Below the pieces are notes generated by a model, which saw only the letters and a list, made by a program, of their open reading frames with translations, did no database searches and was not told the DNA's origin. A stretch of 64,000 nucleotides of DNA from Obrimoposthia wandeli (Eukaryota): assembly GCA_977020255.1 (NCBI GenBank), contig CDROCS010003256.1:62001-126000 (forward strand). Direction: 5' to 3'. Position 1 is the first letter of the stretch. Each line of letters begins with the position of its first letter. Made by a program: the position numbers and the translations under genes. This document shows positions 12,756-41,561 of the stretch, piece by piece.

Positions 12756-12769
12756 TTATCAATATAGGA

Positions 12770-13216: not shown

Positions 13217-13320
13217 AGTAGGTGGATGTGTTCGGTCTAATCCACACCCCCCTCACCACCCTGTCCTTTAAAACCGTGTATGTGTGTGGAGTGAAATTTT
13301 CTACATCCTCCCCCCACCCA
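13217..13320 (+). repeat. Maverick terminal inverted repeat (copy A)
   Basis: Reverse complement of 38345-38452; AG terminus as in Polintons. Confidence 0.92.
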
Positions 13321-17321: not shown

Positions 17322-17348
17322 TTTGCAAATATTGTTCCTTCAACGTTC

Positions 17349-17695
17349 TTACGTTTGTTTATATTGATTTTTTGCTTCTTTTTACGTTTAAATCCACTAC
17401 GTCCTTGACTTTTATTTGATTTACGTTTTCTAATCAAATTAGCAACTTCAGGTAAAACATTATCAAGTTCATCAAGTGCATGCTTCTTAAAAGTTGGTAT
17501 TAGTTTATTATCCTTAGATGAAAGGTAATTTTTTCCTAATTTTGATATAAATCGCCCGAATCTCTTTAAAAGAGGAAAGACAAATCTACCTAATGTTCTA
17601 AGCCAGCCAGATCCATATTGTTTCCCAACAAAATATGGTAATTATCCACCTTGTTGACTTTGACTATAAGCCTCAATTATTGCTGGATTCGTCAT
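17349..17695 (-). pseudogene. Maverick small basic core-type protein (QxGG / QYGSG motifs), copy A
   Basis: MTNPAIIEAYSQSQQGG*LPYFVGKQYGSGWLRTLGRFVFPLLKR..., located between penton and MCP. Confidence 0.75.
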
Positions 17696-18400
17696 TTTGT
17701 TTTCTTAAATGTATTGTTAAACTTGTCTTGGCCCCGTACGTGAAATCTATTAGTTGTCCGGAATCATCTCTAATATTTACTTCAATATTGTTTATAGAAA
17801 ACAGAGCTACTGGAAGATACATTGGTTGATCTATACACATACCGACAACGTCCCCATCTTTAGTTTCATTTTGAGAAATCCATATTGTTCTCAAAAGGGG
17901 AACTCGTTGTCCTCCTACAAGCGTTGATTCTATTAAATTAGTATAAATATATAAATGATTAACAACATTTAAAAGTTTTGTATTATTTTTAGCTTTTATG
18001 GTTTTTATTGTATGGGTTTCAAAGGTATTTCTGTTTAAACCAAGGTTTTTAGTGAGTTTATCATCAAATGAAACCCGTTTTATGTTGCTCTTTACCGTAA
18101 ACGTTAATTTATCATTTAATGTTACACATTTATCCAAATATTCACTACATTCTTTCAGTATTAATTTACATAAATCCACTTCACTATCTATTTTATAATC
18201 TTTTGAAAACGTTTTCAGTTCCACTACAGTCTTTGGTCTCGTTTCATATAAAAACACTTTTGCTACTCTACCAGGAACATTTCTAACCGATTTAGATGAG
18301 ACAATATTCCGTCTATTACGAGTTACTGTTTGTTCACTATCAAAACTGAATTGCAGAGCTTCTTTTTTATATTCAAAGTTAATTTTAATAACTTGAAGAT
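17673..18400 (-). pseudogene. Minor capsid (penton) protein lacking its N-terminus
   Basis: C-terminal HLYIYTNLIESTLVGGQRVPLLRTI..MYLPV..INNIEVNIRDDSGQLIDF..TIHLRK is typical of Polinton pentons; frame stays open upstream to ~18410, where it joins the ATPase by deletion. Confidence 0.85.
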
Positions 18401-18403
18401 ATT

Positions 18404-18916
18404 TTAATCGATTTTTAAATCTGACTTTGTTATTTTTGCCTGTATTATATTTGCCTGTATGGCCACGAAATCTAAAATTGTTTGATCTCTAGGATTTTTA
18501 AATAAAATTAAGTAATGTACATTAAGATTTCTTGTTCTATGGTGACTTCCTTGGCGAAAATGATTTTGAGTGATAAATATAACTGTTACTTCACGATGTC
18601 TTGCAATCTTCGCAAATAACTTATTAAAGTCCGATTCCATGTTAGCTTCCTGATACAAATCATCAATTATTATTAAATCTTCTTTTTTCAATCTTTCACA
18701 CCAATTTGCATCAAATCCTTCAATAAATTGTATTCCCTTCAACTTGCAAACTTCTGTTTTTGTTAATCCGCTTTTCCCTCCACCATGATGCCAATAAATA
18801 TTTTTGAAACTAGATTTGAAAAGAGATTCATTTTGCAACAATTTACATACGAAATGTGTCTTTCCACTTCCACTGGGACCAACTATTTCAAATACAGCAT
18901 TATTATTTAGCTCCAT
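18404..18916 (-). pseudogene. FtsK/HerA (A32-like) packaging ATPase, C-terminally truncated
   Basis: Walker A GPSGSGKT, Walker B IIIDD, ARHR and ITQN motifs; diverges from the B copy after residue ~153. Confidence 0.92.
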
Positions 18917-18953
18917 TACATATACTCTTTCATTTTTAATATTGTTTATATTA

Positions 18954-19235
18954 TCATAGAAGTTTCCTTATTGAAATGTACAATGTTAGATCTATTGTAG
19001 ATGAAATACAAAAATTAATTAATGAATATTTGGCTATAATTTTATTTATTTGTGTACGATTTCTAAATTCTCGAATAACGTGTGATCTAACCAATATTTC
19101 AATGTTATCTCTTGTTATATCATTATTTTTTAATTCTGATAAAATTTCTTTACCCCTAATTTTTCCAGAAAATATTTCGTCTGCAAGACGATTCACTTCA
19201 TTGTCTCTATTTATAGTATTATTCATTTGAAACAA
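18954..19235 (-). CDS. Conserved 93-aa Maverick protein of unknown function
   Basis: Open and nearly identical in copies A, B (24743-25024) and D (11391-11672); relic in copy C. Confidence 0.75.
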   Translation of the reverse strand: MFQMNNTINRDNEVNRLADEIFSGKIRGKEILSELKNNDITRDNIEILVRSHVIREFRNRTQINKIIAKYSLINFCISSTIDLTLYISIRKLL

Positions 19236-19254
19236 TAAGTTTAAACGGGTTTGT

Positions 19255-19755
19255 TTATAGAAAAGATAACAAGATGTAATAAGATTTATTTTCTAAAATC
19301 AAATCAACAATGTCTGGATAATCAAAATTTTTCAATCCCAATATCATAACTTTACCACTGGAAAATATATTTACACATAGCGGTTTAAACTTCAAATAAC
19401 TGAGAGCAGGAAAAATTTTTGGTTCAAACATGCATTCTTCTTTCAATTTCTCTGCAGTTTTAAAAAAAATTATCTGTTTCCCAAGAATAGCCGAAATCGT
19501 GATTGATTGTATTGCAGTGATTCGAATTCCAAATGGTAAATTGAACCCAAGCATTGGTATTTTGCATCCCATAACACGACAATTTCCTAAAAGAATTCAA
19601 TATGAAAATAAAATAAAAAACTAACCTGTAGGAAAAATAACAACTGTGAATTTGTCAAACTTTTCCACATATTGTCTCGGCTTCCATTCATTGAATGGTA
19701 AGTACGAAACATCATCTTCTGTTCTACCTTTATAATTTATATTTACGAGTTTCAT
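19255..19755 (-). CDS. Spliced TATA-binding-protein homologue, 153 aa (exons 19755-19626 and 19586-19255; 39-nt intron)
   Basis: Spliced product has both TBP repeats: MKLVNINY..KPRQY..VVIFPTGNCRVMGCK and IQSITISA..FEPKIFPALSY..VNIFSSGKVMILGLK, compared with TBP YEPELFPGLIY..LIFVSGKIVITGAK. Confidence 0.88.
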
Positions 19756-20004
19756 TAGACTAAAATTGTATTCTATAAAATCTTCTTTATATATTTCTGA
19801 ACCTGCTTTTCTATTGCACGTTTCTTGTAATTATCTTGCAAACCTATTATAATTGGATGATATATTTCTTCCAATCAAATTTGATTTTTAATATGGATTT
19901 AGTCCAATCAAATTCAATGCTTTAGTTATATTAACCAATGAGATTCATGTCTTTGTTAAAAATTATAATAAAAGAATGCGCCATTGGAGGATAAATTACA
20001 GTAA

Positions 20005-20486
20005 ATGTATTCATATCAAAGACAAGTATCAATGATGAACGATAGCCAACAGATATTAAGCGGTGATGAAGATTTAGAAATTTTTGAAGAATCGGATAAA
20101 GATATGTATGAAGAAGTGAAGCACTATTTCAAATACAAAATCAGATTCTTGAAGACGGCTCAACTGATTGCTTTAATAAATCCTGTGACAATTGAAAGAG
20201 GAAAGTTCAGTAATTATCTATCAAATATTCAAAAAACAGATTTTCAATATCTTAAAGAAAAAGTTAAAACGGCAGTTCCAAATATTACTTTCAATAAGAT
20301 CGAATTTTATATCCGAGGAGCCGATGCAGCATTTCTAGATGACTATGGAAGAGAAATAGATGTTGATGCGTTTCAAAAAAGAAGCAATGGACTGTAACAA
20401 TTCAACTTTATGGTTACAAGAAAGATGAAATTGGAATAAAGTTACTTATGTGGAAAATTGAACGTGCTCATATCCCTATGTTTTAA
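20005..20486 (+). pseudogene. Putative SSB paralogue 1, copy A (frameshifted)
   Basis: Homologous to 23495-23971; indel in an A-run near 20375. Confidence 0.75.
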
Positions 20487-20654
20487 CTATTTCATTTTCT
20501 TTCATTTTGCATGTTATAAATTGTAATCGGTTTTATTCATTTTTACTATGTTTCTTTCATTTGGCAATTAATAATCAGTTTTATTTTTCATAATATTTGT
20601 ATCTTAAATGTATTTTTTGATAAATATGTTTTTAATCAGTTTCCCTATTTTAGA

Positions 20655-21065
20655 ATGGATCCTCTTCTGAGATATGTAGGAAATTTTTTTTATTCAGAAA
20701 GAATTTCAAAAGGAAAACCATGTAATATATTAAAGAGGCATCAAATTATACGAGTTATGAATCCTGTGAAAATATCTAAATTAGAGAATAAATATCTCAT
20801 CGAAATTTTAACCACATTTGATATTGATCAATTGAAATATATTTTGGGATTTTACATTCCTGATTATGTATATGAAGTAAATTATTTCCAGCTTGAAACT
20901 GATCCCAGTCTGACTTTTAAAGATGATCTAGGATATTTGATTGCTCCAATTCTAGATGAAAAACTATGGAATATCTCAATACGTCTCAATGGATATTTTG
21001 CTGATGACGGGAAAATGCTGCTTCTATGGACTTTGAGTGAAGCCAATATGGTGTTTTATGTTTAA
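20655..21065 (+). CDS. Putative OB-fold single-stranded DNA-binding protein, paralogue 2 (136 aa)
   Basis: Intact ORF, paralogous to 23495-23971 (NPVxI, DxxxLK, FxDDxG, WxxxIRLxGY..LW). SSB function is inferred from the C-terminal beta-strand pattern only. Confidence 0.6.
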   Translation: MDPLLRYVGNFFYSERISKGKPCNILKRHQIIRVMNPVKISKLENKYLIEILTTFDIDQLKYILGFYIPDYVYEVNYFQLETDPSLTFKDDLGYLIAPILDEKLWNISIRLNGYFADDGKMLLLWTLSEANMVFYV

Positions 21066-21540
21066 TAAATGTTTTGAAAATAATTTTGACTCGTATTTTG
21101 TTTTTCTCTTCTAAATTATATAGATCTATTTTTTCTCTTATAAATCTGACCTAGATATTTAACAAAATCAAGTAGTAATTTATTAATCTTTCTTAAAAAT
21201 AGTAGTCATATATTCACATATTATTTGAAATCTCGTCTGTGATAAGCTGCCGGGACCAATATGGATTCCTGTGGTCTTCTCTAATTACTTTAACATGTTT
21301 TTTATGTTTGATTTAATAAATGTTTTGAAAATAATTTTGAGTCGTATTTTTTTCTTTTCCTTTAAATCTGACCTAAACGTATTTTTTCCTATAAATTATA
21401 TAATTCTTACCTACTTTTTTCTCTCATAAATTATTAATCTAAAATCTTTCTTAAAAATAGTATTAATATATTCACATAAACATATTATTTAAAATCTTGT
21501 CTGCGATAGGCCGCCGGGGTCAAAATTGATTATCGTGGTG
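21060..21540 (+). repeat. ~250-bp imperfect tandem duplication downstream of SSB paralogue 2
   Basis: tttaataaatgttttgaaaataattttga begins at ~21060 and ~21311; both units end with similar gata(a/g)gc(t/c)gccggg motifs. Confidence 0.75.
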
Positions 21541-22540: not shown

Positions 22541-22650
22541 AGAAGTGGATGTGTCCGGTCTAATCCACACCCCCTCCCCCCCTTGTCCTTTAAAACTGTG
22601 TAGGTGTGTGGAGTGAAATTTCGTGTAGGTGTGTGGAGTGAAATTTCGTG
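22541..22650 (+). repeat. TIR of copy B (terminal bases degenerate)
   Basis: gtggatgtgtccggtctaatccacaccccctcccccc..tgtcctttaaaac..gtgtgtggagtgaaattt is the reverse complement of the 38345-38452 end. Confidence 0.9.
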
Positions 22651-22956
22651 TATGTGTGTCTCCATTCCACCCAAAGGGGGGAAGGAAGGGGTACCCCCCA
22701 TATTTGTTAAACTTTTACCATGAATCTCAAAAGTGGTTAGAGAAGACCACGAGAATCCATATTGACCCCGACGGCTTTTCGCAGACGAGATTTCAAATAT
22801 TACTACTATTTTTAAGAAAGATTTTAGATTAATAAATTACTACATGTTAAATATCTATGTCAGTTTTAGAATTTAGAGGAGAAAAATCGGTCAGATCTAT
22901 ATAATTTAGAGGAGCAAAAACAAAATACGAGACAAAATTATTTTTCAAAATATTTA

Positions 22957-23361
22957 TTAAACATAAAACAACATATTGGCTTCACTCAAAGTCCAGAGAG
23001 GCTGCATTTTCCCGTCATCAGCAAAATATCCATTCAGACGTATTGAGATATTTCATAGTTCTTCATCTAGAATTGGAGCAATCAAATATCCTAGATCATC
23101 TTTAAAATCCAGACTGGGATCAGTTTCAAGCTCGAAACAATTTCCTTCATATACATAATCAGGAATGTAAAATCCCAAAATATTTTTCAGTTGATCAAAA
23201 TCAGTTGTTGTTAAAATTTCGATGAGATATTTATTCTCCACTTTTGATATTTTCACAGGATTTATAATTCGTATAATTTGATGCCTCTTTAATATATTAC
23301 ATAGTTTTCCTTTTGAAATTCTTTCTGGATAATAAAAATTTGCTACACATCTCTTATCCAT
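22957..23361 (-). pseudogene. Putative SSB paralogue 2, copy B (TGG>TGA stop at ~23053)
   Basis: Aligns along its length with the intact ORF 20655-21065. Confidence 0.8.
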
Positions 23362-23494
23362 TCTAAAATAAGGAAACTGATTAAAAACAATGTTTATAAA
23401 AAATACACATAAGATACAAATAAGATACAAATAAAACTGATTATTAAATGAAAGAAACATAGTAAAACCGATTACAATTTATTACACACAATAG

Positions 23495-23971
23495 TTAAAA
23501 CATAGAAATATGAGCACGTTCAATTTTCCACATAGGCAACTTTGTTCCCATTTCATCTTTCTTGTAACCATAAAGTCGAATTGTTACAGTCCATTGCTTC
23601 TTTTTCGGAAACGCATCAATATCAACATATCTTCCATAGTCATCTAGAAATGCTTCATCGGCTCCTCGGATATAAAATTCGTTCTTATTGAAAGTAAAAT
23701 TCGGAACTGCCTTTTCTATTTTCTGTTTAAGATATTGAAAATCAAGTTTTTGAATACCTGATAGATAGTAGCTGAACTTTCTTCTTTCAATTGTCACAGG
23801 ATTTACTAAAGCAATCAGTTGAGCCTTCTTCAAGAATCTGACTTTGTATTTGAAATATTGTTTCACTTCTTCATACATATCCTTATCCGATTCTTCAAAC
23901 ATTTCTTCGTCATCGCTTAATACCCGTTGGATATCATCCATTGTTGATAATTGTCTTTGATATGAATGCAT
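23495..23971 (-). CDS. Putative OB-fold SSB, paralogue 1 (158 aa)
   Basis: Intact ORF with acidic N-terminus and C-terminal WTVTIRLYGYKKDEMGTKLPMWKIERA; function inferred. Confidence 0.6.
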   Translation of the reverse strand: MHSYQRQLSTMDDIQRVLSDDEEMFEESDKDMYEEVKQYFKYKVRFLKKAQLIALVNPVTIERRKFSYYLSGIQKLDFQYLKQKIEKAVPNFTFNKNEFYIRGADEAFLDDYGRYVDIDAFPKKKQWTVTIRLYGYKKDEMGTKLPMWKIERAHISMF

Positions 23972-23984
23972 TTACTGTGATTTG

Positions 23985-24220
23985 TCCTCCAATGGCGCAA
24001 TCTTTTATACTAATTTCTAACAAAGACATGAATCTCATTGGTTAATATAACTAAAGCATTGGATTTGATTGGACTAAATCTATATTAAAAATCAAAATTG
24101 ATTGGAAGAAATATATCATCCAATTATAATAGGTTTGCAAGATAATTACAAGAAACGTGCAATAAAAAAGCAGGTTCAGACATATATAAAGAAGATTTTA
24201 CAGAATACAATTTCAGTCTA
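23985..24220. promoter_or_regulatory. Divergent promoter between SSB1 and TBP with six CCAAT boxes and a TATA-like element
   Basis: CCAAT/ATTGG at 23989, 24037, 24058, 24068, 24101 and 24120; tatataaa at ~24183; region conserved in copies A and C. Confidence 0.6.
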
Positions 24221-24759
24221 ATGAAATTCGTAAATATAAATTATAAAGGTAGAACAGAAGATGATGTTTCGTACTTACCATTCAATGAATGGAAGCCGAG
24301 ACAATATGTAGAAAAGTTTGACAATTTCACAGTTGTTATTTTTCCTACAGGTTAGTTTTTTATTTTATTTTTATATTGAATTCTTTAGGAAATTGTCGTG
24401 TTATGGGATGCAAAATACCAATGCTTGGGTTCAATTTACCATTTGGAATTCAAATCACTGCAATACAATCAATCACGATTTCGGCTAATCTCGGGAAACA
24501 GATAAATCTTTTTAAAACTGCAGAGAAAATGAAAGAAGAATGCATGTTTGAACCAGAAATTTTTCCTGTTCTCAGTTATTTGAAGTTTAAACCGCTATGT
24601 GTAAATATATTTTCCAGTGGTAAAGTTATGATATTGGGATTGAAAAATTTTGATTATCCAGACATAGTTGATTTGATTTTAGAAAATATATCTTATTACA
24701 TCTTGTTATCTTTTTTCTATAAACAAACCCCGTTTAAACTTATTGTTTCAAATGAATAA
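24221..24759 (+). CDS. Spliced TATA-binding-protein homologue, 166 aa (exons 24221-24350 and 24389-24759; 38-nt intron)
   Basis: GT-AG intron restores a two-repeat TBP; FEPEIFPVLSYLKFKPLCVNIFSSGKVMILGLK matches TBP repeat 2. The C-terminus is 13 aa longer than copy A because of 2 extra T in a T-run. Confidence 0.88.
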
Positions 24760-25024
24760 TACTATAAATAGAGACAATGAAGTGGATCGGCTTGCCAATG
24801 AAATATTTTCTGAAAAAATTAGGGGTAAAGAAATTTTATCAGAATTAAAAAATAATGATATAACAAGAGATAACATTGAAATATTGGTTAGATCACACGT
24901 TATTCGAGAATTTAGAAATCGTACACAAATAAATAAAATTATAGCCAAATATTCATTAATTAATTTTTGTATTTTATCTACAATAGCTCTAACATTGTAC
25001 ATTTCAATAAGGAAACTTCTATGA
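24743..25024 (+). CDS. Conserved 93-aa Maverick protein of unknown function
   Basis: Open in three copies. Confidence 0.75.
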   Translation: MFQMNNTINRDNEVDRLANEIFSEKIRGKEILSELKNNDITRDNIEILVRSHVIREFRNRTQINKIIAKYSLINFCILSTIALTLYISIRKLL

Positions 25025-25061
25025 TAATATAAACAATATTAAAAATGAAAGAGTATATGCA

Positions 25062-25709
25062 ATGGAGCTAAATAATAATGCTGTATTTCAAATAGTTGGC
25101 CCAAGTGGAAGTGGAAAGACACATTTCGTCTGTAAATTGTTGCAAAATGAATCTCTTTTCAAATCTAGTTTCAAAAATATTTATTGGCATCATGGTGGAG
25201 GAGGGGAAAGCGGGTTAACCAAAACAGAAGTTTGCAAGTTGAAGGGTATAAAATTTATTGAAGGATTTGATGCAAATTGGTGTGAAAGATTGAAAAAAGA
25301 AGATGTAATAATAATTGATGATTTGTATGAAGAGGCTAACAAGGAATCGGACTTTAATAATTTATTTACAAAGATTGCAAGACATCGTGAAGTTACAGTT
25401 ATATATATCACTCAAAATCTGTTTCACCAAGGAGGTCACCATAGAACAAGAAATCTTAATGTACATTACTTAGTTTTATTTAAAAATCCTAGAGATCAAA
25501 CAGTTGTTGATTTTGTGGCCAGACAGGCATTTCCTCAAAATAAAAACTTTCTAGTTGATTCATTCCACGATGCTGCTAAACAAGCACATGGGTATATATT
25601 TATTGACTTTGCACAAGCTTGCCCAGATGATTTACGTGTTTTAACAGACACGTTTAATTCTAAGGGATTAACTGTTTATAAACAAATAGAGAACAATTAT
25701 AAAAAATAA
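25062..25709 (+). CDS. FtsK/HerA (A32-like) genome-packaging ATPase, 215 aa
   Basis: GPSGSGKT Walker A, IIIDD Walker B, ARHR, ITQN, RNLNVHYLVLFKNPRD, HGYIFID. Confidence 0.96.
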   Translation: MELNNNAVFQIVGPSGSGKTHFVCKLLQNESLFKSSFKNIYWHHGGGGESGLTKTEVCKLKGIKFIEGFDANWCERLKKEDVIIIDDLYEEANKESDFNNLFTKIARHREVTVIYITQNLFHQGGHHRTRNLNVHYLVLFKNPRDQTVVDFVARQAFPQNKNFLVDSFHDAAKQAHGYIFIDFAQACPDDLRVLTDTFNSKGLTVYKQIENNYKK

Positions 25710-25888
25710 ATGCGCAATGCCTTTTACAAAGTTGATAGTAAAACGTAAAGTAAAATCTAAGAAATCAAAAAAAAGAATCATTAAGAAAAAAGAAGTGAAA
25801 AAATTAATCAAATCTGTAGTTAAAAATAAAAAAAAAATTAAATGGCTTCGAATATAAACAATATTTAAATTGAACCTTTTTTATTAAA

Positions 25889-26218
25889 ATGCAGAAAATA
25901 CAAAGAAGCATACCCTATTTTAAAGCTTTAGTCAAAACCTCTTCTAATAAGAGAATGATTATTCTCAAAGCATTTCCATCCTTTGTTGTAGATGATTTAT
26001 TGGAAGTTTTGTATAATATAGTTTTGGGTCGAGTAAAAGTTGGAAATCGGAAAAATATATTAAAGAAATATAGAAAAACTATTCTAGATATTGCTAATGT
26101 AAAAAGTAAAAAAAGGAAACGAAATATTATTCTTAAACAGAATGATGGTTTCATAGGGGCTGTTATTCCAGTTGTTGCTTCAATTATCAGTAGTATTATA
26201 GCTGCGACACGTGCATAA
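25889..26218 (+). CDS. Maverick small basic protein with C-terminal amphipathic QxxGF..P segment
   Basis: Lys-rich body and KQNDGFIGAVIPVVASIISSII tail, resembling the conserved Polinton ORF found between ATPase and integrase. Confidence 0.7.
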   Translation: MQKIQRSIPYFKALVKTSSNKRMIILKAFPSFVVDDLLEVLYNIVLGRVKVGNRKNILKKYRKTILDIANVKSKKRKRNIILKQNDGFIGAVIPVVASIISSIIAATRA

Positions 26219-26304
26219 ACAATTATTTATAAAATCAGTTAAAGATATGGGTGCTAACCCTTCTTTACCTAAATTTAAATTATCTTTCTATTCAAATTGT
26301 TGTA

Positions 26305-27318
26305 ATGGAGAAGAAATGGTTCTACCCAAAAGATCCAATTGGCTACACCGGAGTTTAAAAATTAGCAAAAAGAACAAAACAAAAATATATGAAAACGCAG
26401 AAATGGCTGAGCAACCAGTTGGCCTACAGTCTGAACAAGCCGATGAGAATAAGGTTTCCAACTAGAGCTTACAAAACCAGCGGTCCTAATAATTTATGGC
26501 AAATGGATTTGATGGAGATGATCCCATATTCTTCCATTAATAAGGGATATCGATATATTTTAACATGTATTGATGTATTTAGCAGATTTGCTCGTGCAAT
26601 TCCAGTTAAAGCAAAGTCTTCAATAGCTATGCTTGAAGCCATTAAAGAAATATTAAAAGAGGACATTCCACAAAATGTGCAAACTGATTTAGGAAAAGAA
26701 TTTTATAATAAGCAAGTTCAATCATTATTTAAACAAAATAATATAAATCATTACTCTGTGTTTTCACAATACAAAGCAGCAGTAGTAGAAAGATTTAATC
26801 GTACTCTAAGAGATCGAATAAAAAAGTATTTCACAAAAGAAGGAAATAAAAAATGGATCCAAGTTTTACCTAAAATAATACATGCATATAATCACTCTGA
26901 ACATAGAGGTCTCAAGAGAATGAGACCTGTTGATGTTACTAATAACCTTGGTTTAAACAGAAATACCTTTGAAACCCATACAATAAAAACCATAAAAGCT
27001 AAAAATAAGGCAAAACTTTTAAATGCTGTTAATCATTTATATATTTATACTAATTTAATAGAACCAACGCTTGTAGGAGGACAACGAGTTTCACTTTTGA
27101 GAACAATATGGATATCTAAAAATGAAACTAAATATGGGGACACTGTCGGTATGTGTATAGATCAACCAATGTATCTTCCAGTTTCTCTCTTTTCTATAAA
27201 CAATATTGAAGTAAATATGAGAGATGATTCCGGACAACTAATAGATTTCACGTACGGGGCCAAGACAAGTTTAACAATACATTTAAGAAAACAAAATGGC
27301 GAATCCAGCAATAATTGA
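26305..27318 (+). pseudogene. Retroviral-like (rve) integrase fused in frame to the penton C-terminus
   Basis: DDE triad intact (WQMDL, QTDLGKEF, VERFNRTL). In-frame start at 26305 is interrupted by TAA at codon 18. After MRPVDVT (~26940) the sequence switches to penton NLGLNRNTF..., matching the 17673-18060 region. Confidence 0.92.
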
Positions 27319-27650
27319 AGCTTATAGTCAAAGCCAACAAGGTGGATAATTACCATATTTTGTTGGTAAACAAAATGGATCTAGCTGGCTTAGAACATTA
27401 GGTAGATTTGTCTTTCCTCTTTTAAAGAGACTCGGGCGATTTATATCAAAATAATGAAAGGATTACCTTTCATCTAATGACAATAAACTAATACCAACTT
27501 TTAAGAAGCATGCGCTTGATGAACTTGATAATGTTTTACCTGAAGTTGCTAATTTGATTAGAAAACGTAAATCAAATAAAAGCCAAGGAGGTAGTGGATT
27601 TAAAAGTAAAAAGAAGCTAAAAATTAATATAAACAAACGTAAGAAAGTTG
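27296..27650 (+). pseudogene. Small basic core-type protein, copy B
   Basis: MANPAIIEAYSQSQQGG*LPYFVGKQNGSSWLRTLGRF; further stops at ~27450. Confidence 0.75.
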
Positions 27651-27669
27651 AAGGAACAATATTTGCAAA

Positions 27670-28896
27670 ATGAGTTGCGCCAAAACTGAATTATGTATTT
27701 TTGATAAACCGCTTCCACAAGTAGTTGTAGATAATGCTTCCTTTGAAGAAATATTCCTTGTTAACTCAGTTTCAGGAACCACTTTAACCGATTTAGAATT
27801 TAATATTAATGGTTCCAATAGCGAGTATTTAGATTTGAATGATACTTTGCTTTATGTTCAAATAAAAGTATTAAATCGGGATGGTACTAATTTAGATGAA
27901 AATGCTGATGTAACACCTGTAAATTATCTATTTAATTCTTTATTTAATGATGCCATTGTTACTCTTAATAATGTCAAAATTGAAGGTGGAAATTCTTCCT
28001 ATGCTCATAAAGCTTTGATTGAAAGTCTTTTGAATTATAGTACTGATACTCAAAATACTAATTTGGCAACCATTGGTTATGATAAAACTGATGCAACTCG
28101 CAAAGAATGGATTGCAGGTTCTAAAGCTTACGAAATGTGTGGGTCTTTGAGATTGAATTTCTTTGAACAACCGAAATATTTAATTCCCGGTGTTAATGTA
28201 CATCTTCGTTTGAAACGTAATAAATGGAATTTTTCTTTGATAAGCACGGACATTCTAAAACCTAGACTTGATATTTTGGATGCAAAATTGTATGTTCGAA
28301 GAGTTAAAACCGAGCAATCAGTTTTAATGGCACATAATATAGGAATGGAAAAAAACAATGCTTGTTATCCTATTAGAGAAACTAAACTTATATCTTATTC
28401 TTTAGGTACGGGTACACAAGCTTTTAATAAGGATCAAATTTTTGGTGATGTAAGATTACCGAAATTCATTTTAATTTCTTTTCAAAAAACTGCAAAGTTT
28501 CTAGGAAATTATACGACAGATGCAACTCAATTTGACAATCTTAATGTTGGTTCAGTGACACTTTCAAGAAATACTGATTATCGTGAAACATATAAAACAG
28601 ATTTCGAAGGTAACGCTTATGCTTTGGCTTATACCCAATCTATTATTCGAAATTTGGGTCAACTAGATAAAAATATAAACAATGGTATTTCTTTCACTGA
28701 CTTTAAAAACAGCTGCCCGTTCTTCACATTTGTTTTGGCACCAGACTTTGATATAAACCAATGCCAACTACCAAAGGATGGAAATTTACGACTAGAAATT
28801 AAGTTCAATGCAGCTTTAACAAATCCTACTATATTTATTTACGGAGTATTTGATTCGGAAATACAAATCAATAAAAACAGAACTGTCATATTATAG
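27670..28896 (+). CDS. Double jelly-roll major capsid protein, 408 aa
   Basis: MSCAKTELCIFDKPLPQ N-terminus, LEF..YLDLNDTLLYV, FFEQPKYLIPGV..LRL and LRLEIKF motifs of Polinton MCPs; frame intact. Confidence 0.95.
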   Translation: MSCAKTELCIFDKPLPQVVVDNASFEEIFLVNSVSGTTLTDLEFNINGSNSEYLDLNDTLLYVQIKVLNRDGTNLDENADVTPVNYLFNSLFNDAIVTLNNVKIEGGNSSYAHKALIESLLNYSTDTQNTNLATIGYDKTDATRKEWIAGSKAYEMCGSLRLNFFEQPKYLIPGVNVHLRLKRNKWNFSLISTDILKPRLDILDAKLYVRRVKTEQSVLMAHNIGMEKNNACYPIRETKLISYSLGTGTQAFNKDQIFGDVRLPKFILISFQKTAKFLGNYTTDATQFDNLNVGSVTLSRNTDYRETYKTDFEGNAYALAYTQSIIRNLGQLDKNINNGISFTDFKNSCPFFTFVLAPDFDINQCQLPKDGNLRLEIKFNAALTNPTIFIYGVFDSEIQINKNRTVIL

Positions 28897-28897
28897 A

Positions 28898-29278
28898 ATG
28901 GAGTAAGACATATTTTAAATTTATATTTATTAATTTTTATTTAGTTCAAAACAAGTAAAAGAATCAGCAGAGAAGGTCCTGGGTGATAAATTCAATGGAG
29001 TTTATCCTATTGATATGATTCCATTTTTTCAATCTGGAGGTTACATTATCAATACTCATACTTCGAATTTACCAGGAGAACATTGGATAGCTATTTATGT
29101 TAGAGAGTGGACAATACATGTATTTGATCCACTTGCAATGTATTATCCACACAAACTTGTTTCAACTATTCAAAAAGGACGAAGAAGAGTATTTTACAAC
29201 AAGATACAATATCAGGATCCTGCGACGAGAAACTGTGGACATTTATGTATTTTATGGTTATCGTTGCAAAACGATTAG
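28898..29278 (+). CDS. Adenain-like cysteine protease, 112 aa after splicing (exons 28898-28902 and 28945-29278; 42-nt intron)
   Basis: INT..PGEHW (His), FDP (Asp), QYQ, NCGHLC (Cys); ATG GA|gtaag...ttag|T gives MDSKQV.. in frame. Confidence 0.92.
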
Positions 29279-29510
29279 TGTGTTATAAAAATAAATATTT
29301 TAAATGTTTTATTTTGAATTATTTTTTAAATCTCTAAAAATATATAAGGGTAAAATAATAAAAGACATAAGGAGATATGTCAGCAAAGATCATAATAAAT
29401 AAGGTCCAAAAAAGTATTGAAATAACAAATAGTTAGAGTCTAGGTGCTCTAAAATTTTAAAAACTAAACTAAAAACTTTAACTTCTGAAGTGTCCATAAT
29501 GCGCTTGTCG

Positions 29511-32500
29511 TCAGCGATTTTGGTTGATCAGTTGATGGGCTCTTGAACTAGTTTGCTCAACGCTTTCAAGACACCCAGTATCATAAACTTTCCGGTAGGC
29601 CTCATGTGTAAGATTGTTTCTTCCCACACCCTTTGCTCTCATTGAACATGTATTATTAGATGCATGTAAACTGTAGCATTTAGGGCGTAGGAAAATACAA
29701 TCATCATACGAAACCTGTCCCTCGCTTTCATCCTTAAATTTCCCGATAATGTCCTTTAAACTCATAGAGTGTAGAGGATGGTTAGCGGGATATTTATGGG
29801 TATCTAGTAAGTTGTCCCTAAACATTGCTGGTAATAATTGATTATTTAAACTAACATTCCTACATTCTAAAAAGAAAGAGTCAGTGTCCCCAGCTGCGAT
29901 TTTGAATCTCACAATTAAATTCTTGTCGGTATTTCTCCAATTCTATGTATTGAAGCTCATACATTCTGAGTTTAGAAATGTCTAAAACCGTTTGACCTAT
30001 ATAACTCGGTCGATCGAGACAAATACTCTGTTTTCCTAATAACACTGCTACCAAGTCATCTGCAATTGTAAAACTACGCTTGAAGTTGTACTTGCTAGTA
30101 TATGTTATTAGTTTACGCTCATCATTGCTAAACCGTAGACAAATACGTTTCCGCAAGTCCTCTACAGTTTTTCCAAAGAGACTATTACTTTTTAACTTGT
30201 AAAAATCTCGATCGAATATGCTAGTGGCCTAATTACGTTTTCTTGAATTCTTCTCAATATAGTCTTTAAACACAAAGTTTTGACTGAAGCTTATAGCACG
30301 ATGAATTCGAGTAACTTTCGCTCCCAACTTTAAGTAGAATTGAAGAAGCCGCCAATGCACAACATAATTCAACTTGTCTTCATGGGTTAACAATAATTTC
30401 TTAACCTTTGAATTAGGTGGGCATTGACAAACAGGCACTACTGGAAGATTATCTAATTTATCATGAACATTGGAGGGGATTTTTATGTTAATCTCAACCA
30501 AATAGCCGACGTCTGATGAAACTGTATCAACAGTAGCCAAATCTGTCATCAACTTATTCAACTGATCCACATCATAAACCCACTTAAAGTTGGCATGAGG
30601 TAGAGGTTGAGTAAACGCCCACCCATACAAATTATTAATATCGATGTACAGAATCTCCGTGGATTGATTTTTGACAACATGATGTTTGTTGACAAAAGTC
30701 ATTCCACCGCGTATACCATAATCATACATTTGATACATTGCGGGATCTTGCAGTAACTCGATATTAATTTTAAGAGTTTTTATTGCTGTTGCCTATGAAA
30801 GACCAGGTAAACTAAAGAAATGCATGGGATCTAGCCCATCTTTTGCTAAATACTTTACACGAAAGGACTCAAAAACATCAGCTAAAAGATAAATGCTTAA
30901 CTTCATATAATAAAGCATATATTAGAGAAGATTTTGACAATTATTCACCCAAAATGTACGGGCCTCATTATAGTCTTGAAGACTTACACCCTCAAATTCA
31001 GTTATGGGTGGGATTTCAGTTGTATTTTCTAAATCTGCGAAAGTTTTCGCAAATTTATACGGAAAAATCCCCTTATCGTTAACCGAAGCTGGGAACACTG
31101 ACTGTGTAATTGGCCATGCATTTAAAGATGCCATTAAATTTTTTAAAGACCCGCTCAAAAACTGCAGAGAATCTATGAATCTTAAACTGTAGAATTCAGT
31201 ATATGCAGTTAAAGATAAATATTTCTCTGAAGTTTGAGGTATACATGAAATTTCCCAAGAGCTTAATGTACCCAACGCGTATTTAAGTATATGATGCAAA
31301 TCATATCCTTTGAGGTTATGAAACACGATGGGAATGCGTGCTTTTTAGGGAGACGACGGCCAAGGTTACAAAGATTGCACGCCGCTCCCAAGTATCGCCC
31401 CGTAACATGATTGTGATCTCTGACTAACTTAGACTGGGTTCCACACAAATAACATAATCTACAAGAATTAAAATTAACCCAGTCTATGCCTGTCATGATC
31501 ATTGCTTGATGAGCATTGAGATCATACCACGGTTTGACAATTGTTGTTCCTAATTCCTCTAATTTTAACATAAAATCTAAAATACAATTTGGACCGGAAA
31601 ATTTATGATACTGGGTAATATTGGGGCCTAAGAATAGTAGTCCTGCCGAAGCCGGTAGGTGAATACTCTCATACTGGTCGTGCAATGCTAAAATTGACTC
31701 AAAATCTGCATACACCCTGAATTCCACGGGTATGCATTTTGCCCAATCCCTGAATTTTAAATCCTTATCCTTAGGCATGCTATATAGCGTATTGTCATCA
31801 GGATTCAGTGAACATAATGTCAGATGTTTGCTGTAAGAGAGCTCGGATCGGAACCCATGCAAACATCTATGACACCACTTACACCTTATCCTAACCGGTA
31901 AGGCTCCATTATCTAAATTTAGAAGACGATCTAAACTGGGAATTGCAGCATAATGGAATTTATTATTATGTTCGAGCAAAATTAAGTTGACCTGAGTCCC
32001 CTCATTTTTGCTCCTATAAATTACATCTACAAAAGGATTTTTAAAAATTTCTTCATCTGTTACATCAACTGGGATATCAGTATTATATTTGAATACATTA
32101 ATACTCAAGTTATTAAGATGTTCAAATCTTGATATCGCAGTTAATTTAACAGGAAAATCTATTCCATGATACTGCAATTCATTTAAAAAAGGGGTATATT
32201 TACTGACATGCTCTCTATGCTCAGTAATTACATCCCTTTTGAGGATGGCCAACACGCTATACAGAAAGCAAAGGTTATCACTGTTTTGTACGTTAACAAT
32301 GGAACGTGAAAGTTGAAGAGATCTAGGTGAAGGAATGTATGAACTCCCCGAAAGATATATCATGTCAGTGAACTTTGTTAGAACAAAGCTAACATCGTGA
32401 ATTCTAACTAGAGTCCATCCACTACTTAACTCGCTATAATTAGCAATTTTTTCATCCAGGTTTCTTCCAATTTCAGTTACAAAATTATCATACAAAACAG

Positions 32501-32822
32501 TTGCTTTATGTGAAATTACCCTAGTTTTAGTTTCCTCATTGACATTTTTAAACTGCACTGTTGCGCAAAATTGAACCTTAGCCTGTCCTAATTTAGTCAC
32601 TTCTGATTTTAAAAGATTTTCAATATTTGAATCTACACCTACGTTTAATAAAATTTCATTTCTTAATGGCACCTTAACTATAACATATTTATTATTTAGG
32701 TGATACTCTATTGTAGCACCGTTTTCTCTACGTTTTTTGGGTGGGACCTTATTAAGAAATTGGCCTCGCCTCTTTCTTCCGTTTGTCGCTGACAAACCTC
32801 CCCTAATTGAACGGGAAGACAA
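29511..32822 (-). pseudogene. polB: Protein-primed family B DNA polymerase with N-terminal terminal-protein region; frameshifted
   Basis: Exo I VYADFES, DHNHVTGRYLGAACNLCN insert, Exo II FHNLKGYD, motif A YIDINNLYG, motif B KLKSNSLFGK, motif C GDTDS. Split over ORFs 31263-32822, 30922-31326, 30229-30738, 29881-30156 and 29511-29912. No ATG at the 5' end. Confidence 0.96.
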
Positions 32823-32829
32823 CTATTTA

Positions 32830-33902
32830 TATTAATAGTTGAGACAATCGCAGCTGAGGTTGAAGGTGCTGCTATTGGTGATGCTGCCGATGTTGAGACA
32901 ATTGCAGCAAAGCTGCTGCTAGTTGATGCTGCCGATGTTGAGGCAACTGTAGATGATGTTGAAGGGACCGCTGACCTTTCCGATGAAGAAGCGGCTGTTG
33001 TAGAAGTTAGTGCTGCTGAAATAAATATATTAAAAAATAAATATATTTTTAAAAATTATTACCTCTAAGGCGTGCTAACATCGATGTAGGCACTCGCGAA
33101 GGTGGAGGCATATCTGTTGTAGCAGATGACGATTGTAGAACGGTATTTCCTGAATAAATAATATAAATAAAATATATATAATAAAAATAAAATATATAAT
33201 TACTATTTACAAAAAAAAAAAAAAAAACTAATGATGACAATCCAAGTTGAGCTGGAATGAAGTCATCTTCATTGGTGGAAACCAGCCAGCTGTCGGCCGG
33301 TGGCTCGACGAAATCGGATTTCTCGATGGTCTCCAACCAGGTGTTGTCGCTCCATTGAGGCTGCTCCATCTCGAAATCTGACTGGGTGATATTTCGCATC
33401 CAGTCATTGTTTGAGAATTGGGTTGCTGGTGCCAACTCCTCAAAATCTTCCTCGGAGATGTCGTTCATCCACTCATTGTTAGACATTTGAGTGGATGGGG
33501 CAGCAGCAGAATCAGGAGCCGGGAGAGAAGGACCAATGGCAGGACCATAAACTGGTAGACTGACTGCCACTGTAAATGGAGGTGGAGCTCGAGCGGCCTG
33601 CGAATCGCGCACCAATTGGACGATATCCCTCTTCTTGTTGTTGGCCGTGAAACACGATAGGTGAGCTCGATGTTCACAGAAGAATTCTCGAAACTCCTTC
33701 TCCTCCATTGTTCTGCAGAAGGGGCAGACGAAGAACAGAACACCTTGAGACTTTGTCCGGTAGTATGCAGACATTGTCTCCATGCAGGACTCTCCTCCAT
33801 GCAGAGCCGAAGCAGCGCAATACGCAGGGAATAGGTTACACGTAATCTGAAATAATAAATATTAATAAGGAAATAATAAAAATAAATTCTTACCATAGGC
33901 AT
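32830..33902 (-). CDS. Spliced Cys/His-rich (RING-like) protein with acidic W..I...DF repeats and a Ser/Thr/Ala linker
   Basis: Exon 33902-33894 (MPM), 47-nt intron, then ITCNLFPAYC..H..C..CPFC-x12-CEHRAHLSC; further AT-rich introns near 33150-33230 and 33020-33062. Confidence 0.7.
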
Positions 33903-33984
33903 TATTTCAAATTGTCGGGGATTTAAATGAAGAAAGTGTTTGCTTATATACTAAAATTTATGCACACATGCTCTTTTCCTATTG

Positions 33985-34240
33985 GATTAAAAAATTGAAT
34001 TTATTCCTCCACTGAGAAGGATTGTTTATCTGTTATTGGATGAAAAAATAATTTTATTCCTCCAATTAAAGAGAAGGATTGTTTATCTATTATAGGTTGA
34101 AAAAATAATTGTATTTTTCTCATTAAAGAGAAGGATTAATCATATATTATAGGTTGAAAAAAAATTTATTCCTCTAATCAAAAGGCTTATTTGTAAATAA
34201 ATGTAAAATTTTAATAATGAATTCCTCCAATTAGAAGAAT
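33985..34240. repeat. ~57-bp tandem repeats upstream of the Zn-finger/PolB unit
   Basis: tttattcctc..gagaaggattgtttatct..atagg/attgg..aaaaaat repeated 4-5 times. Confidence 0.75.
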
Positions 34241-34275
34241 TGTTTATCTACATGTCAAGTAATAATAAGAAAGAC

Positions 34276-34719
34276 TTAAACATTTTTATATGCGCAATGG
34301 TCACCATGATTACGATATGGACAGCAAATATTTTGTGGAATATTTAATAGATGATCACGTGAAATATTTAAAGTATTCAACCTCAATTTAGGAAAATATT
34401 TTTTTAAAGTCTTATATTTTTTGCCATCCATGTCATCTAAAACATAAAAAATTTCATTTTCAATTTCAAAATTAGATTTAAAAGTATCGAAAATACATAT
34501 TTCACAAAAAGCCTTATGTTTTAATAAATGGAAATATTTAGTTAGATATAAATTAGTAAATGTTTTCTTATAATCTAAACTTTTAAATTGGATATCTATA
34601 TGAAATATGAAATGCAAAGGATGAAAAACGTCGCATACATCCATAATACATAATTCTTTTATAATATAATCCCCATTTTTGTTAATGAAAGCCTCAAAAT
34701 CTATGATATATTCCTGCAT
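34276..34719 (-). CDS. DEDD 3'-5' exonuclease-like accessory protein with C-terminal CxxxxHxxHCA motif
   Basis: IIDFEAF..YIIKELCI N-terminus and CCPYRNHGDHCAYKNV tail; may be C-terminally truncated. Confidence 0.6.
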   Translation of the reverse strand: MQEYIIDFEAFINKNGDYIIKELCIMDVCDVFHPLHFIFHIDIQFKSLDYKKTFTNLYLTKYFHLLKHKAFCEICIFDTFKSNFEIENEIFYVLDDMDGKKYKTLKKYFPKLRLNTLNISRDHLLNIPQNICCPYRNHGDHCAYKNV

Positions 34720-34853
34720 AATTACCCAAATTTGTAGCAAATCCCGTTGTTTATAACGAAAAACAATTAATCAAAAATTTATTAAAATGACGAGGTAGTA
34801 TTTAGACAATTTATTTAGACAATAAACATAATCAATAAAGACAAAATAATAAT

Positions 34854-35183
34854 CTATAAAATTAATTTTTTTGTGGAAGGACCCTCTTCCGGTTTAATCT
34901 GGAGGATTCGCTTTCTTGCTGCTCGCCGAACATCCTCCGTCTCTTCTCTTCTTTTTTCCTCCACCTTCCTTTTTTCCATTTCGATTTTCTTGTTCCACTC
35001 CACAACCCGACGTCGTTCTGCTAGCCGCCTGTCCTGAATCTCCACCCGACGATTCCACTCGGTCGCGACAGCAGTATATAAATTCTGGTTGAGGATCCTC
35101 TTTCGTAAATCTCCTTTCTTCTCATTTATTCTTATATTTGTCTCGATCTTCGTCACCAAACTTTGCATTTTAATAAATTCCAT
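34854..35183 (-). CDS. Highly charged coiled-coil protein, 109 aa
   Basis: Intact ORF with an NLS-like basic tail; homologue in copy A. Confidence 0.7.
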   Translation of the reverse strand: MEFIKMQSLVTKIETNIRINEKKGDLRKRILNQNLYTAVATEWNRRVEIQDRRLAERRRVVEWNKKIEMEKRKVEEKRREETEDVRRAARKRILQIKPEEGPSTKKLIL

Positions 35184-35587
35184 TTTTTAATTATGAAGAT
35201 GTTAATAAATTTGAACCTATATATATAAATTAAAGATATTTTTAATCCAATCACAAGCAATTAAAATATATTTATCAAATGGAAGTTTAATAAATATATA
35301 ACTAATCATTGCATTTATATTTAATCCTAAAAATTTAATTATTCCTTAACAATCCAATCACATTCGAATAAGTTAACTTTATTTTAATAAACTTACGGAG
35401 GATATTTTAATATTACTAAATTCTAAAATTTATTTTTAACCTTGTTATTTTATTAAACTTAAGGAGGATATTTTAATATTAAATTCTAAAATTTATTTTT
35501 AACCTTGTTATTTTAATAAACTTAAGTAGTATATTTTAATATTACTAAATTCTAAAATAAATAATAATAAAAAGACAACACAAGAAA

Positions 35588-37691
35588 CTAATGTTTATAA
35601 ATTATATTTTTGAAAATCCTTACGAAGTCTTCATTGGGATCATTTGGGTCGTATTCCCTCCGACTTATTTTGATAGGAGAAAGCGGTACTGGTTCCTTCT
35701 TCTTTGGCCGGCCTGGTTTCTTTTTCGGCTTCACCGGTTGCTGTACAGCAATTGTCCTTCCCTCAGGTTTTGGCAATAGTTGCCGCAACTTTTTGGGAGG
35801 AGGTGCAGCCGATGTTGATGGCCCCGACATAGAAGCAGTAGCCTTCCTCTTCCGCGGAGCTTTCTTCTGTTTCTCCTCCTTCTCACGCTGAAGCTGGCGT
35901 GAGACGGCATCCTGTTGCCCACGCGAATCTGGAAGCATTGCGGGTGTATCCAGTTCCGGAATTCGTCCAAACCAGCGTCATCCCAGGCCCTCTTCAAGTT
36001 TTGGCTGGTTGTTGGACGAGGAGAAGCAGTCTCCTGCAGGCGTTGTTGACTCGAGTGCGGACTTATCTCGATCGGCGAGACTGAGATCCTCTCATATAAG
36101 ATAGGCCCGTCGTCCATTGGAGGAGGGAGAATCTCCTGCTGGCCAATCACCGCCTCAGAATAATGGCCAATTGAGGTTCGAATTTTTCTCGCGCGCCTCG
36201 TCTTCTTCACCTCTGCCCGCTTTGTCCTTTTCTTAGGGAAAGGAGTAACTTCTCCCCAAGTCTCCTCAATTATCCGGACAGGTTCCTGCAAATGAAAACA
36301 AAAATAAAATTTCAAATAAAATTTTATTTAAATAAAAAAATATTTAAAATAACAAAAATTACCTCAATAATCTTAGACGGAAGGTTTTCCTGCCGCTCAA
36401 TCGTTACTTCACTCGAATTGAGCAGACAGGATTTCGCCTTTCTAAGACGCCGTGTCTTCCGTACAGTAAGCTGCCTCGTTCGCTTATGCGGGAAAGGAGA
36501 AATTTTGGCCCATGTCTCCTCAGTTAATATTATTGGTTCCTGCAACAAAAAAACATTAATAAAATTTAAACATATAAATAATTTACCTCGATGACGGGCA
36601 GATTAGCCTGTTTCACCAACTTGGCCTTCTTCCGATGGACCGTATTGGTTTTGATTCGATGACGTCGAGGTTTCCTAACTGCCGCTTGCTTCCTATCGAT
36701 AGGTAGTCTCCGAGATGCCTCCTCCTAAATTTCCTCCACCAACTCAGCTTCCTAAGTGAATAATTAAATAAATTTACTAATTTATAATGATATACCTCAA
36801 TTTTAGCCGGAGTCGGTAGGTATCTCTGATCACTCCTGGGATCATCCTGGCTACATTGACTCGCCAAGTATTGCGGTTCAATTAGCCTCTCAATCGTGGT
36901 CACTGACGGTGCCAAATCCAGTTGCAGTTTCTGAAAATAAAATTAAAAAACATTTTAAATAAATGATTTCTAACCTCATTCGTCGCCTTTATTCTCCTAA
37001 CAGGACGTATCGGAGATTGTGGCCTTCTGAATGGATCAGGCACTGTAATGTTGGGTATTGGAGTCGGAGTTGTAGAGGGAGTGAGACCATCCCATTCGTC
37101 AGTGAACAGATCCCACTCATCTTCATCCATTTCTGCAACCATGGACTCGTTGGCTCCTGGGGCTCCGATACTTGGCTGTATCCACTTCTCCTCCCCATCC
37201 GACGGAACGTCATCAGTAAACAGCTCCTCGTCTGAGTCTGGTGCCAGTATTATCTCCGGTTGAGACAGCGGGATCAATTTCCAGGGGCATTTGATTGCCG
37301 CCTCGAAATTGTCAAAGAGATTGGATCTCCTTGCTGCTACTGCTGAAGTTGCCGGACGATTGGCTTCTGTGTTCAGCCTGGGAGTACAGTCTTCCCAATT
37401 CTCTATCGAATCCTGACTAGTCAGATCTATATATTGGGATCTCTGTACCCCACCTCGCACGCTCATTGGTTCTTCTCTTGGAGTTGAGCTGGCCAATGGC
37501 GGTTCTTCTAGCAACAGTTGGGCTCTTGCTGCTGCTTCTCCTTCGTCTCCTTCAGTCACCACCGACGAGTCTTGACTAAGTAAGCCAATGTACTGCGCCG
37601 GTGGTGGCGTTCGCTGCTGTACTGGAGAGAGATCTCCATACAGTTGAACCTCCGTCTCTTCGTCTAGGTCAACGTTGTTGTAGATTGGCAT
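35588..37691 (-). pseudogene. Five-exon 'gene X' of copy B (exons 37691-36975, 36930-36796, 36751-36587, 36539-36363, 36285-35588; ~630 aa consensus)
   Basis: Four phase-0 GT-AG introns (44, 44, 47, 77 nt). TGG>TAG in exon 3 and a 4-nt deletion in exon 5 relative to copy A. Confidence 0.8.
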
Positions 37692-37759
37692 TCTTGCTTC
37701 TTGATTAATGATATTTGATTTATGAAAAAATAATGAAAAGAGGTTTCCTTATATACAAA

Positions 37760-38150
37760 AATAATAGACTAACCCTCTTTTGTCGTCCAATGAGAGCGGG
37801 TTAATCAAATAATTTTTTTGAAAATCAATAGGCTATTCTCAATTTTTTTTAACTATGCTGGAATGCTGGAATGTCATTGGATAAAACATATTTTATTCGA
37901 AAATATATCACTAAACTTTTGTCGTCCAATGAGGGCTGGTTATTCAAATAATTTATTTGAAAATCAGTAGGCTTTTCTCAATTTTTTAACTATGTTTGAA
38001 TGCTGGAATGTCATTGGATAAAACATTTTTTATTCGAAAATATAACTATTTTCTCAAGATTTTCTTAAAATTTTGTTGTATAAGTTTAACGTCCAATGAA
38101 AACGTATTATTCAAAGAATTTATGGTATTTTCTTAAATTTTGTTGATGTT
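37760..38150. repeat. Three ~125-bp subterminal promoter-like repeats containing CCAAT motifs
   Basis: gtccaatga..ttattcaaataattt..gaaaatc..gtcattggat repeated; only one such unit in copy A (~13480-13590). Confidence 0.75.
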
Positions 38151-38344
38151 TGAATACATGTATGTCTTTGGATTAGTATTTATTACTCGTTGATCCACCG
38201 CGGGCCCGTAGGGCACGCTTTGGCCAATTTTTTGGCCTCTCAGGACCTTAATCAAAAATTTGGGAGCATTATGAGATTTTTAAATTTACAGGGTGTTAAA
38301 TGGAGTTAATTTTTTTTTTTTTGAGTGTTTGGAATGGGGGGGTA

Positions 38345-38452
38345 GAAAATTTTTCTACACACCTACACGAAATTTCACTCCACACACATGCACGGTTTTA
38401 AAGGACAGTAGGGGGGAGGGGGTGTGGATTAGACCGGACACATCCACCTACT
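38345..38452 (-). repeat. TIR of copy B
   Basis: Ends ...ggattagaccggacacatccacctact at 38452. Confidence 0.93.
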
Positions 38453-41138: not shown

Positions 41139-41561
41139 TTGGCAATGCGAAGTCAAAAGTCTGGAAACGTAAAAATACTGAAGTATGAGGCTGTAATATG
41201 CCATTTCAAGGCGCCGAAAGAGAGCAATGATGTGAAATTGGATAAATTGAAAGAGGTGTTCACCAAGTCAATGTTGGTCAAGAAATGGAAGGGAACTATT
41301 ACTTTGACGCAAGACAACGTGAAAATCAAGTCTGTCAACAACTACTTCAATCGGCATTTTAAGTACACAGATGTGAAGATGCTCTATTCTCCGACAGACA
41401 ACACCAGCCAGATGATGTTAACTTTAGAGGACACCGAAATTTACTATTTCATACTCCAATTCAAGGACAGCGATCAGATAAGCAAGCTGGTTGAGGTTAT
41501 GGACCAAAAGAAGAACTATGAGATCATACCCAGTCGTCATGCACAGAGCAATTATAGGTAA
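41139..41561 (+). CDS. Intronless 140-aa ORF, possible PH/PTB-like fold
   Basis: Clean ORF with higher GC than its surroundings; alternating beta pattern and C-terminal helix (YYFILQFKDSDQISKLVEVM). Fold call is an impression only. Confidence 0.5.
   Translation: MAMRSQKSGNVKILKYEAVICHFKAPKESNDVKLDKLKEVFTKSMLVKKWKGTITLTQDNVKIKSVNNYFNRHFKYTDVKMLYSPTDNTSQMMLTLEDTEIYYFILQFKDSDQISKLVEVMDQKKNYEIIPSRHAQSNYR

Follow-up and report, generated by a model that had tools for sequence, protein, structure and literature searches.

Animal Mavericks may be transposons, or they may be viruses whose life cycle is regulated. The Maverick described here is bounded by inverted repeats and occupies positions 22545-38452 of a 64,000-nt stretch of the Obrimoposthia wandeli genome (contig CDROCS010003256.1; "the window"). 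A first-pass annotation had tentatively combined a TBP homologue, four acidic-aromatic repeats, a zinc finger, a protein with SIM-like and AT-hook motifs and CCAAT-rich promoters of this element into one module for transcription and anti-silencing. Sequence comparison suggests that these five parts do not form one module and that the conserved core is a short TBP together with a matching box, TATAAACA, on the virion genes. We think it probable that the short TBP reads this ATAAACA box as a herpesvirus-style early-to-late switch for the capsid and packaging genes, because these genes share the box and the TBP gene is devoid of it.

The short TBP and the ATAAACA box

The TBP homologue of the first-pass annotation stands. 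Pfam family PF00352 matches 24403-24759, in the second exon, with an E-value of 1.1e-11, the structure model (pLDDT 93.4) has the TBP fold, and the top Foldseek matches are all TBPs (TM 0.64-0.76). The gene is predicted to contain a GT-AG intron of 38 nt (24351-24388), a pattern matched in 11 of 14 copies tested, and intronless relatives are colinear with the predicted spliced gene. Three families have an intron of 36-38 nt at the same position, which other families and most of the metagenome relatives lack, suggesting that introns have been gained or lost inside Mavericks. The relatives are proteins of 145-150 aa that make up one family (35 matches; 98 clusters at E <1e-10, which include some ordinary TBPs). 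A TBP was found in every family sampled, the samples being 30 other-family elements of this genome (20 copies from TBP-bearing families and 10 picked by polymerase alone, all ten with a TBP) and 47 metagenome loci, in 17 of which Maverick core genes adjoin the TBP gene.

In the predicted model the two-lobed saddle has a complete C-lobe and an N-lobe consisting of strands only; both N-lobe helices are missing, with no helix in residues 1-61, and host TBP has a basic helix 2. Among 31 homologues F39, F100 and F116 are invariant, which accounts for three of the intercalating phenylalanines, the fourth position being variable. Likewise invariant are N4, N6, R45, M47, S69, T71 and N114, for which mapping by eye onto host TBP gives N, V, V, T, N, V and L. 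The changed positions (N6, R45, M47, S69, T71, N114) presumably face the DNA. Two C-lobe stirrup glutamates that bind TFIIB (PMC7221094) are kept as E96 (30/31) and E98 (31/31). With cellular TBP (PF00352) and giant-virus TBPs the Maverick protein shares the saddle, the C-lobe F-P, the second F and the E-x-E stirrup, but identity is only about 23-27% and both N-lobe helices are gone. Giant-virus TBPs are mostly paired with a TFIIB of their own and have lost the glutamates (PMC7221094). The host itself carries intronless divergent TBP paralogues (C60:132396-132908, C1092:86720-87232, C968) besides an ordinary TBP on C238.

The box TATAAACA is found about 30-50 nt before the start codons of virion-module genes and has 38 matches in the window (8.8 expected). 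Counts were made in six genome families and nine metagenome loci, with start codons picked automatically and four rows without an ATG (two PW, two TBP) dropped. ATAAAC(A/G) lies within 130 nt before the ATG of the genes for the ATPase (12/12), PZ (12/12), minor capsid (11/11), major capsid (10/10), PW (9/9), DEDD (9/10) and integrase (9/12), as against TBP (0/13) and orfB (2/9); the chance per 130-nt stretch is 0.04-0.07. Sense matches number 8-13 and antisense matches 0-1 in six elements. Where the box falls inside the 3' end of the ATPase gene, the codons TAT AAA CAA are used in 14/14 lineages, compared with a background use of 57/80 for TAT and 158/207 for AAA. In the window, TBP, orfB, pPolB, orf109 and R1 are instead preceded by a canonical TATA at a distance of 38-64 nt, and each has 2-6 CCAAT boxes. 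The CCAAT-rich promoter noticed earlier was borne out, the interval 23972-24220 holding six such boxes where 0.63 are expected, an excess reached by none of 2000 shuffles. Judged by sequence, the Maverick lineage has two promoter classes. Two further placements of the box were seen: at 28674-28681 (+) it lies inside the major capsid gene, a placement shared by several families, and as the protease follows after about 300 nt this copy of the box may be its promoter, and in head-to-head TBP/pPolB families (L049:3088 (-), L137-L155) it stands antisense within the TBP gene, oriented towards pPolB.

In the two-step programme that we favour, host factors would first transcribe the genes for TBP, polymerase and the SSB-like (single-stranded DNA-binding) proteins from ordinary CCAAT and TATA promoters, and the short TBP would then bind the ATAAACA box and recruit host TFIIB and RNA polymerase II (Pol II) to the virion genes. 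Its C-lobe would grip the 5' TATA half and the kept glutamates would recruit TFIIB, while the N-lobe, being remodelled and more polar, would accommodate the C at box position 7 and escape TFIIA, TAF1 and Mot1. We partly assume here that the changed N-lobe would face the 3' half of the box, where this C lies. A preference for T at the first TATA position is attributed to the proline that follows the C-lobe phenylalanine (PMC12529657), and TFIIA, TAF1, Brf1 and Mot1 use acidic-aromatic segments to bind a basic cluster located mostly on N-lobe helix 2 (PMC7221094). If the switch is real, a dedicated late promoter with its matching factor would directly attest a timed programme, and it would account for quiet capsid genes across thousands of integrated copies. 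The protein would then be a natural altered-specificity TBP that has kept the TFIIB contact, dropped the regulatory lobe and prefers TATAAACA over TATAAAAG.

A precedent is given by ORF24 of Kaposi's sarcoma-associated herpesvirus and its TATT late promoters, where a virus-coded TBP fold serves a one-base-variant TATA on virion genes (PMC12529657). In common with ORF24, BcRF1 of Epstein-Barr virus and UL87 of human cytomegalovirus and their TATT boxes (PMC12529657), the Maverick has conventional early promoters and a polar DNA-facing surface, and its sequence likewise suggests a variant TATA box on virion genes. ORF24, however, is a large protein that works as one of six members of a complex, contacts Pol II directly and has lost or never had the TFIIB glutamates, whereas the Maverick protein of 150 aa keeps them and, like its 145-150 aa relatives, is the saddle only, free of ORF24-type Pol II-binding extensions or partner activators. 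The likeness to BcRF1 is at fold level only (E 1.7e-3). The Maverick TBP would at most work like ORF24 and is not a member of an ORF24-type system.

TBP-like genes of polinton-type viruses had already been annotated by Starrett et al. 2021 (PMC8502044, Fig. 5 legend), and supplementary file 2 of Buck et al. 2024 (PMC11071296) holds at least 27 "TBP" matches in adintovirus or Maverick records; the main text of the latter preprint is without the term, as is the one supplement of PMC8502044 that was searched. Adinto18043_TBP (PMC11071296) shares GQCRIMG and EPELFPA with the window's TBP. Several of these TBP records also hold a TFIIB-like gene, of which our open reading frame (ORF) lists and gene maps contain none, no profile search having been made. 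In the available adintovirus and Maverick material of PMC11071296 and PMC8502044, TBP is given no promoter or function and neither a helix-less N-lobe nor the box is described; a literature search returned no published account of the ATAAACA box or of a function for a Maverick TBP.

The predicted polymerase leader and the family-specific genes

The right-arm gene boundaries differ from those drawn in the first-pass annotation, which had found the repeats and the zinc finger correctly but had treated them as separate proteins. AT-rich GT-AG segments interrupt the genes of this arm, and their phases connect the ATG at 33902, the zinc domain, the repeats and the terminal-protein region of pPolB. 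The three 5' introns were located in 14, 15 and 15 of 15 family copies; their donors are preserved in 14, 14 and 15 copies and their acceptors in 11, 15 and 14, and their lengths vary between 28 and 86 nt. The conserved Cys/His domain (33619-33846, minus strand; 18-31% identity in distant families) has two sites, C-C-H-C and CxxC-H-H, in an alignment of 13 copies. In other families it directly precedes the terminal-protein region and in four of them shares one frame with it; single open frames joining the two have 262-401 codons, and also 816, 1185 and 1539. As far as sequence can tell, the zinc finger forms the N-terminal end of the protein-primed polymerase precursor and is not a separate protein, which corrects the annotation.

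The four acidic-aromatic repeats (W..I..DF; about 33256-33480, minus strand) are likewise no separate activator and lie in predicted 5' exons of the pPolB gene; one subfamily-B copy has three. They fill the linker after the zinc domain in the window's family, whereas family 3 has an acidic linker that lacks repeats, family 4 has one rich in Pro/Ala/Val, and in two others it is short. Of six genome copies checked, five have a Q/S-x-G motif before the terminal protein and the sixth has SLRG; the motif is possibly a protease site releasing the zinc/acidic leader. We predict that zinc finger and acidic linker together make up the leader of the terminal-protein precursor, and the repeats could bind host TBP or replication factors. 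The motifs DNxCF and HY are present in the window's pPolB frame, and the order TP-vOTU-EXO-PALM is shared with polinton pPolB (10.1101/2024.03.18.585575); the difference is the two-site zinc domain and variable linker before the terminal protein.

In family 3 (L064:1498-6114 (+), L060, L062) a ubiquitin-like domain ending in LRGG comes before the zinc domain, with a frame break there in two copies; given the vOTU protease in the same chain, LRGG could be a self-cleavage site. Pfam also identifies a BIR-RING inhibitor of apoptosis in families 3 and 4 (L061:3519-4421; left arms of L067 and L077), and family 4 has a dual-specificity-phosphatase-like gene whose active-site motif appears altered by eye.

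R1, the proposed SIM/AT-hook protein, does contain one strict SIM-like motif (YIDLTS, in 36975-37691) and one AT-hook-like motif (KKKPGRPKKK, in 35588-35938), but Pfam calls neither. Its four predicted introns were located in 12, 7, 7 and 7 of 15 copies, and its last exon has a frame break in the window copy. The acidic repeats and R1 appear to be family-specific extras, absent from the gene order of all 30 other-family elements and all 47 metagenome loci.

Weighing the readings

Several points weigh against the late switch. The box is also carried by two of nine orfB genes, by the SSB-like paralogue orfA and by the DEDD gene, ATAAAC also occurs twice ahead of the window's pPolB, at 127 and 184 nt, and some minor-capsid matches read AATAAACA, a sequence overlapping a poly(A) signal. 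The box counts are not independent, because the lineages are related. The first N-lobe phenylalanine position is unconserved (Y/C/I/F), for which the nearly invariant F20 may substitute as the fourth intercalating residue. A TBP-less Maverick was looked for and none was found, so that loss of the box without the gene was not seen. Splicing in the window's family is predicted from sequence.

A bolder version, in which these Mavericks would run a complete viral transcription programme in two stages, is possible but rather doubtful. In it, the acidic zinc-finger leader of the genome-linked terminal-protein precursor would help to fire the early promoters of host type; then a TBP of 150 residues, its DNA face rebuilt and itself invisible to host TBP regulators, would drive all virion genes from an orthogonal TATAAACA via host TFIIB, as the smallest known TBP switch.

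Alternatively, host TBP/TFIID might treat the box as a variant TATA that is weak or tissue-specific, the Maverick TBP being, for example, a decoy, a repressor of early promoters or a competitor for TFIIB. The box is one position away from canonical TATA, the host owns TBP paralogues, and wild-type plant TBP was crystallised on a C(-25) TATA variant (title of entry 1qn3), so that host TBP can bind a similar box. A C kept strictly at position 7 across lineages, in differing reading frames and beside canonical TATA boxes in the same elements, is nevertheless hard to explain without a dedicated reader. The invariant changes of the viral protein, on what we take to be its DNA-facing side, point the same way, and we regard reading by host TBP as unlikely.

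It is improbable that the viral TBP, an acidic-repeat activator, the zinc finger and a SIM/AT-hook anti-silencer act as one E1A/ICP0-like module. All parts occur together in 12 of 20 family copies picked by TBP, a function in transcription and common CCAAT and TATA promoters can be upheld, and acidic-aromatic tiles score in the repeats, R1 exon 1 and the family-3 linker by a heuristic that we presume to apply. Pairwise dN/dS between subfamilies is 0.33 for the zinc domain, 0.31 for the repeats and 0.27 for R1 exon 1; by this sequence measure the regulatory-looking genes are under purifying selection within the family. R1 exon 5, however, reaches 0.61, and across families the outcome that the first-pass annotation itself had named as refuting is seen: the set does not co-occur beyond one family, the repeats and R1 being confined to it. 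The zinc domain and linker belong to pPolB, with a linker of different composition or length in three families. Pairing of the viral TBP with the acidic repeats is unlikely, since its model lacks N-lobe helix 2, the surface bound by acidic-aromatic segments. An ICP0/E1A-like stand-alone activator would be a separate gene with a RING or C4 zinc finger and an activation domain, but the zinc domain here has the sites C-C-H-C and CxxC-H-H and lies in the pPolB frame, and Atlas RING leads scored below 0.8; the sequence-based analysis of the Maverick found no evidence of an anti-silencing function.

It is very improbable that a host factor recognises the box as a forkhead (FOX) site: TAAACA is the FoxM1 consensus (PMC2910063), but the box is single, fixed in strand and distance, and GTAAAC(A/G) is unenriched (1-4 matches, 0.8-1.7 expected).

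The element and its surroundings

The features of the window copy are collected in the table.

Table. Features of the Maverick, in window coordinates, with Pfam matches where these were obtained
Feature	Position	Strand	Remarks
Left terminal inverted repeat	22545-22637	none	94 nt, 92.6% identity to 38354-38447
orfA	23053-23361	-	Paralogue of orfB (27-29% identity), likely SSB-like
TATAAACA box	23391-23398		Upstream of orfA (minus-strand gene)
orfB	23495-23971	-	Predicted single-stranded DNA-binding protein with an OB-fold of the T7 gp2.5 type; common neighbour of TBP
Bidirectional host-type promoter	23972-24220		6 CCAAT/ATTGG; both ATGs preceded at 38 nt by a canonical TATA; ATAAAC box absent
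Short TBP-like gene	24221-24759	+	Exons 24221-24350, 24389-24759; predicted intron
TATAAACA box	24718-24725	+	34 nt before orf90
orf90	24752-25024	+	TATAAACA box upstream
TATAAACA box	25028-25035	+	34 nt before packaging ATPase
Packaging ATPase	25062-25709	+	Pox_A32, E 4.8e-6
TATAAACA box	25677-25684	+	Inside ATPase 3' end (Y-K-Q codons), before small basic ORF
TATAAACA box	25853-25860	+	36 nt before PZ-like gene
PZ-like core gene	25889-26218	+	Label assumed
Integrase N-part fused into 3' part of putative minor capsid gene	26389-27318	+	PF00665 (rve), E 4.7e-13
TATAAACA box	27195-27202	+	About 100 nt before PW-like gene
TATAAACA box	27628-27635	+	42 nt before putative major capsid gene
Putative major capsid gene	27670-28896	+	Conserved 408-aa ORF; from size and position; no Pfam match
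Adenain-like protease	29015-29278	+	Peptidase_C5, E 0.018, below cut-off
pPolB body	29511-33015	-	Terminal-protein region, vOTU, endonuclease VII-like, palm (PF03175, E 2.7e-9); several broken frames in window copy
Predicted pPolB 5' exons	33063-33902	-	33902-33894, 33846-33229, 33149-33063; two-site zinc domain and four acidic-aromatic repeats
DEDD-like gene	34276-34755	-	D-x-E motif; no Pfam match; TATAAACA box 34748-34755
orf109	34854-35183	-	Basic, coiled-coil-like, family-specific; canonical TATA
R1	35588-37691	-	Predicted five-exon disordered protein; SIM-like motif, acidic-aromatic stretch, AT-hook-like motif; family-specific
Right terminal inverted repeat	38354-38452	none	Pairs with left repeat

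Some of these names are assumptions of ours: the major capsid assignment draws partly on what is known of the family, we take the gene labels PZ-like and PW-like to apply, and the DEDD label is presumed from the D-x-E motif. Compared with other copies, the window copy is without about 1060 nt at 26945, and no matching 6-mer indicative of a 6-bp target site duplication was found at its ends. The dN/dS of orf109 between subfamilies is 0.09.

The 1.35-Gb genome holds at least 150 near-identical copies; the TBP-exon search scored 150 matches among 32,673 first-look candidates, and these are 98-100% identical. About 6-7% of all contigs in runs X1-X4 map to 10.6 kb of the Maverick, which fits a very large family. 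On either side of the element, at 10600-21540 and about 60000-63240 of the window, lie several partial copies of its family, rearranged and 79-96% identical. An ORF at 41145-41561 (+) with a PH-like domain, together with about 30% GC and very short introns, hints at a flatworm host; this ORF matches the trematode family PF25356 weakly (E 1.3e-4) and is likely a host gene.

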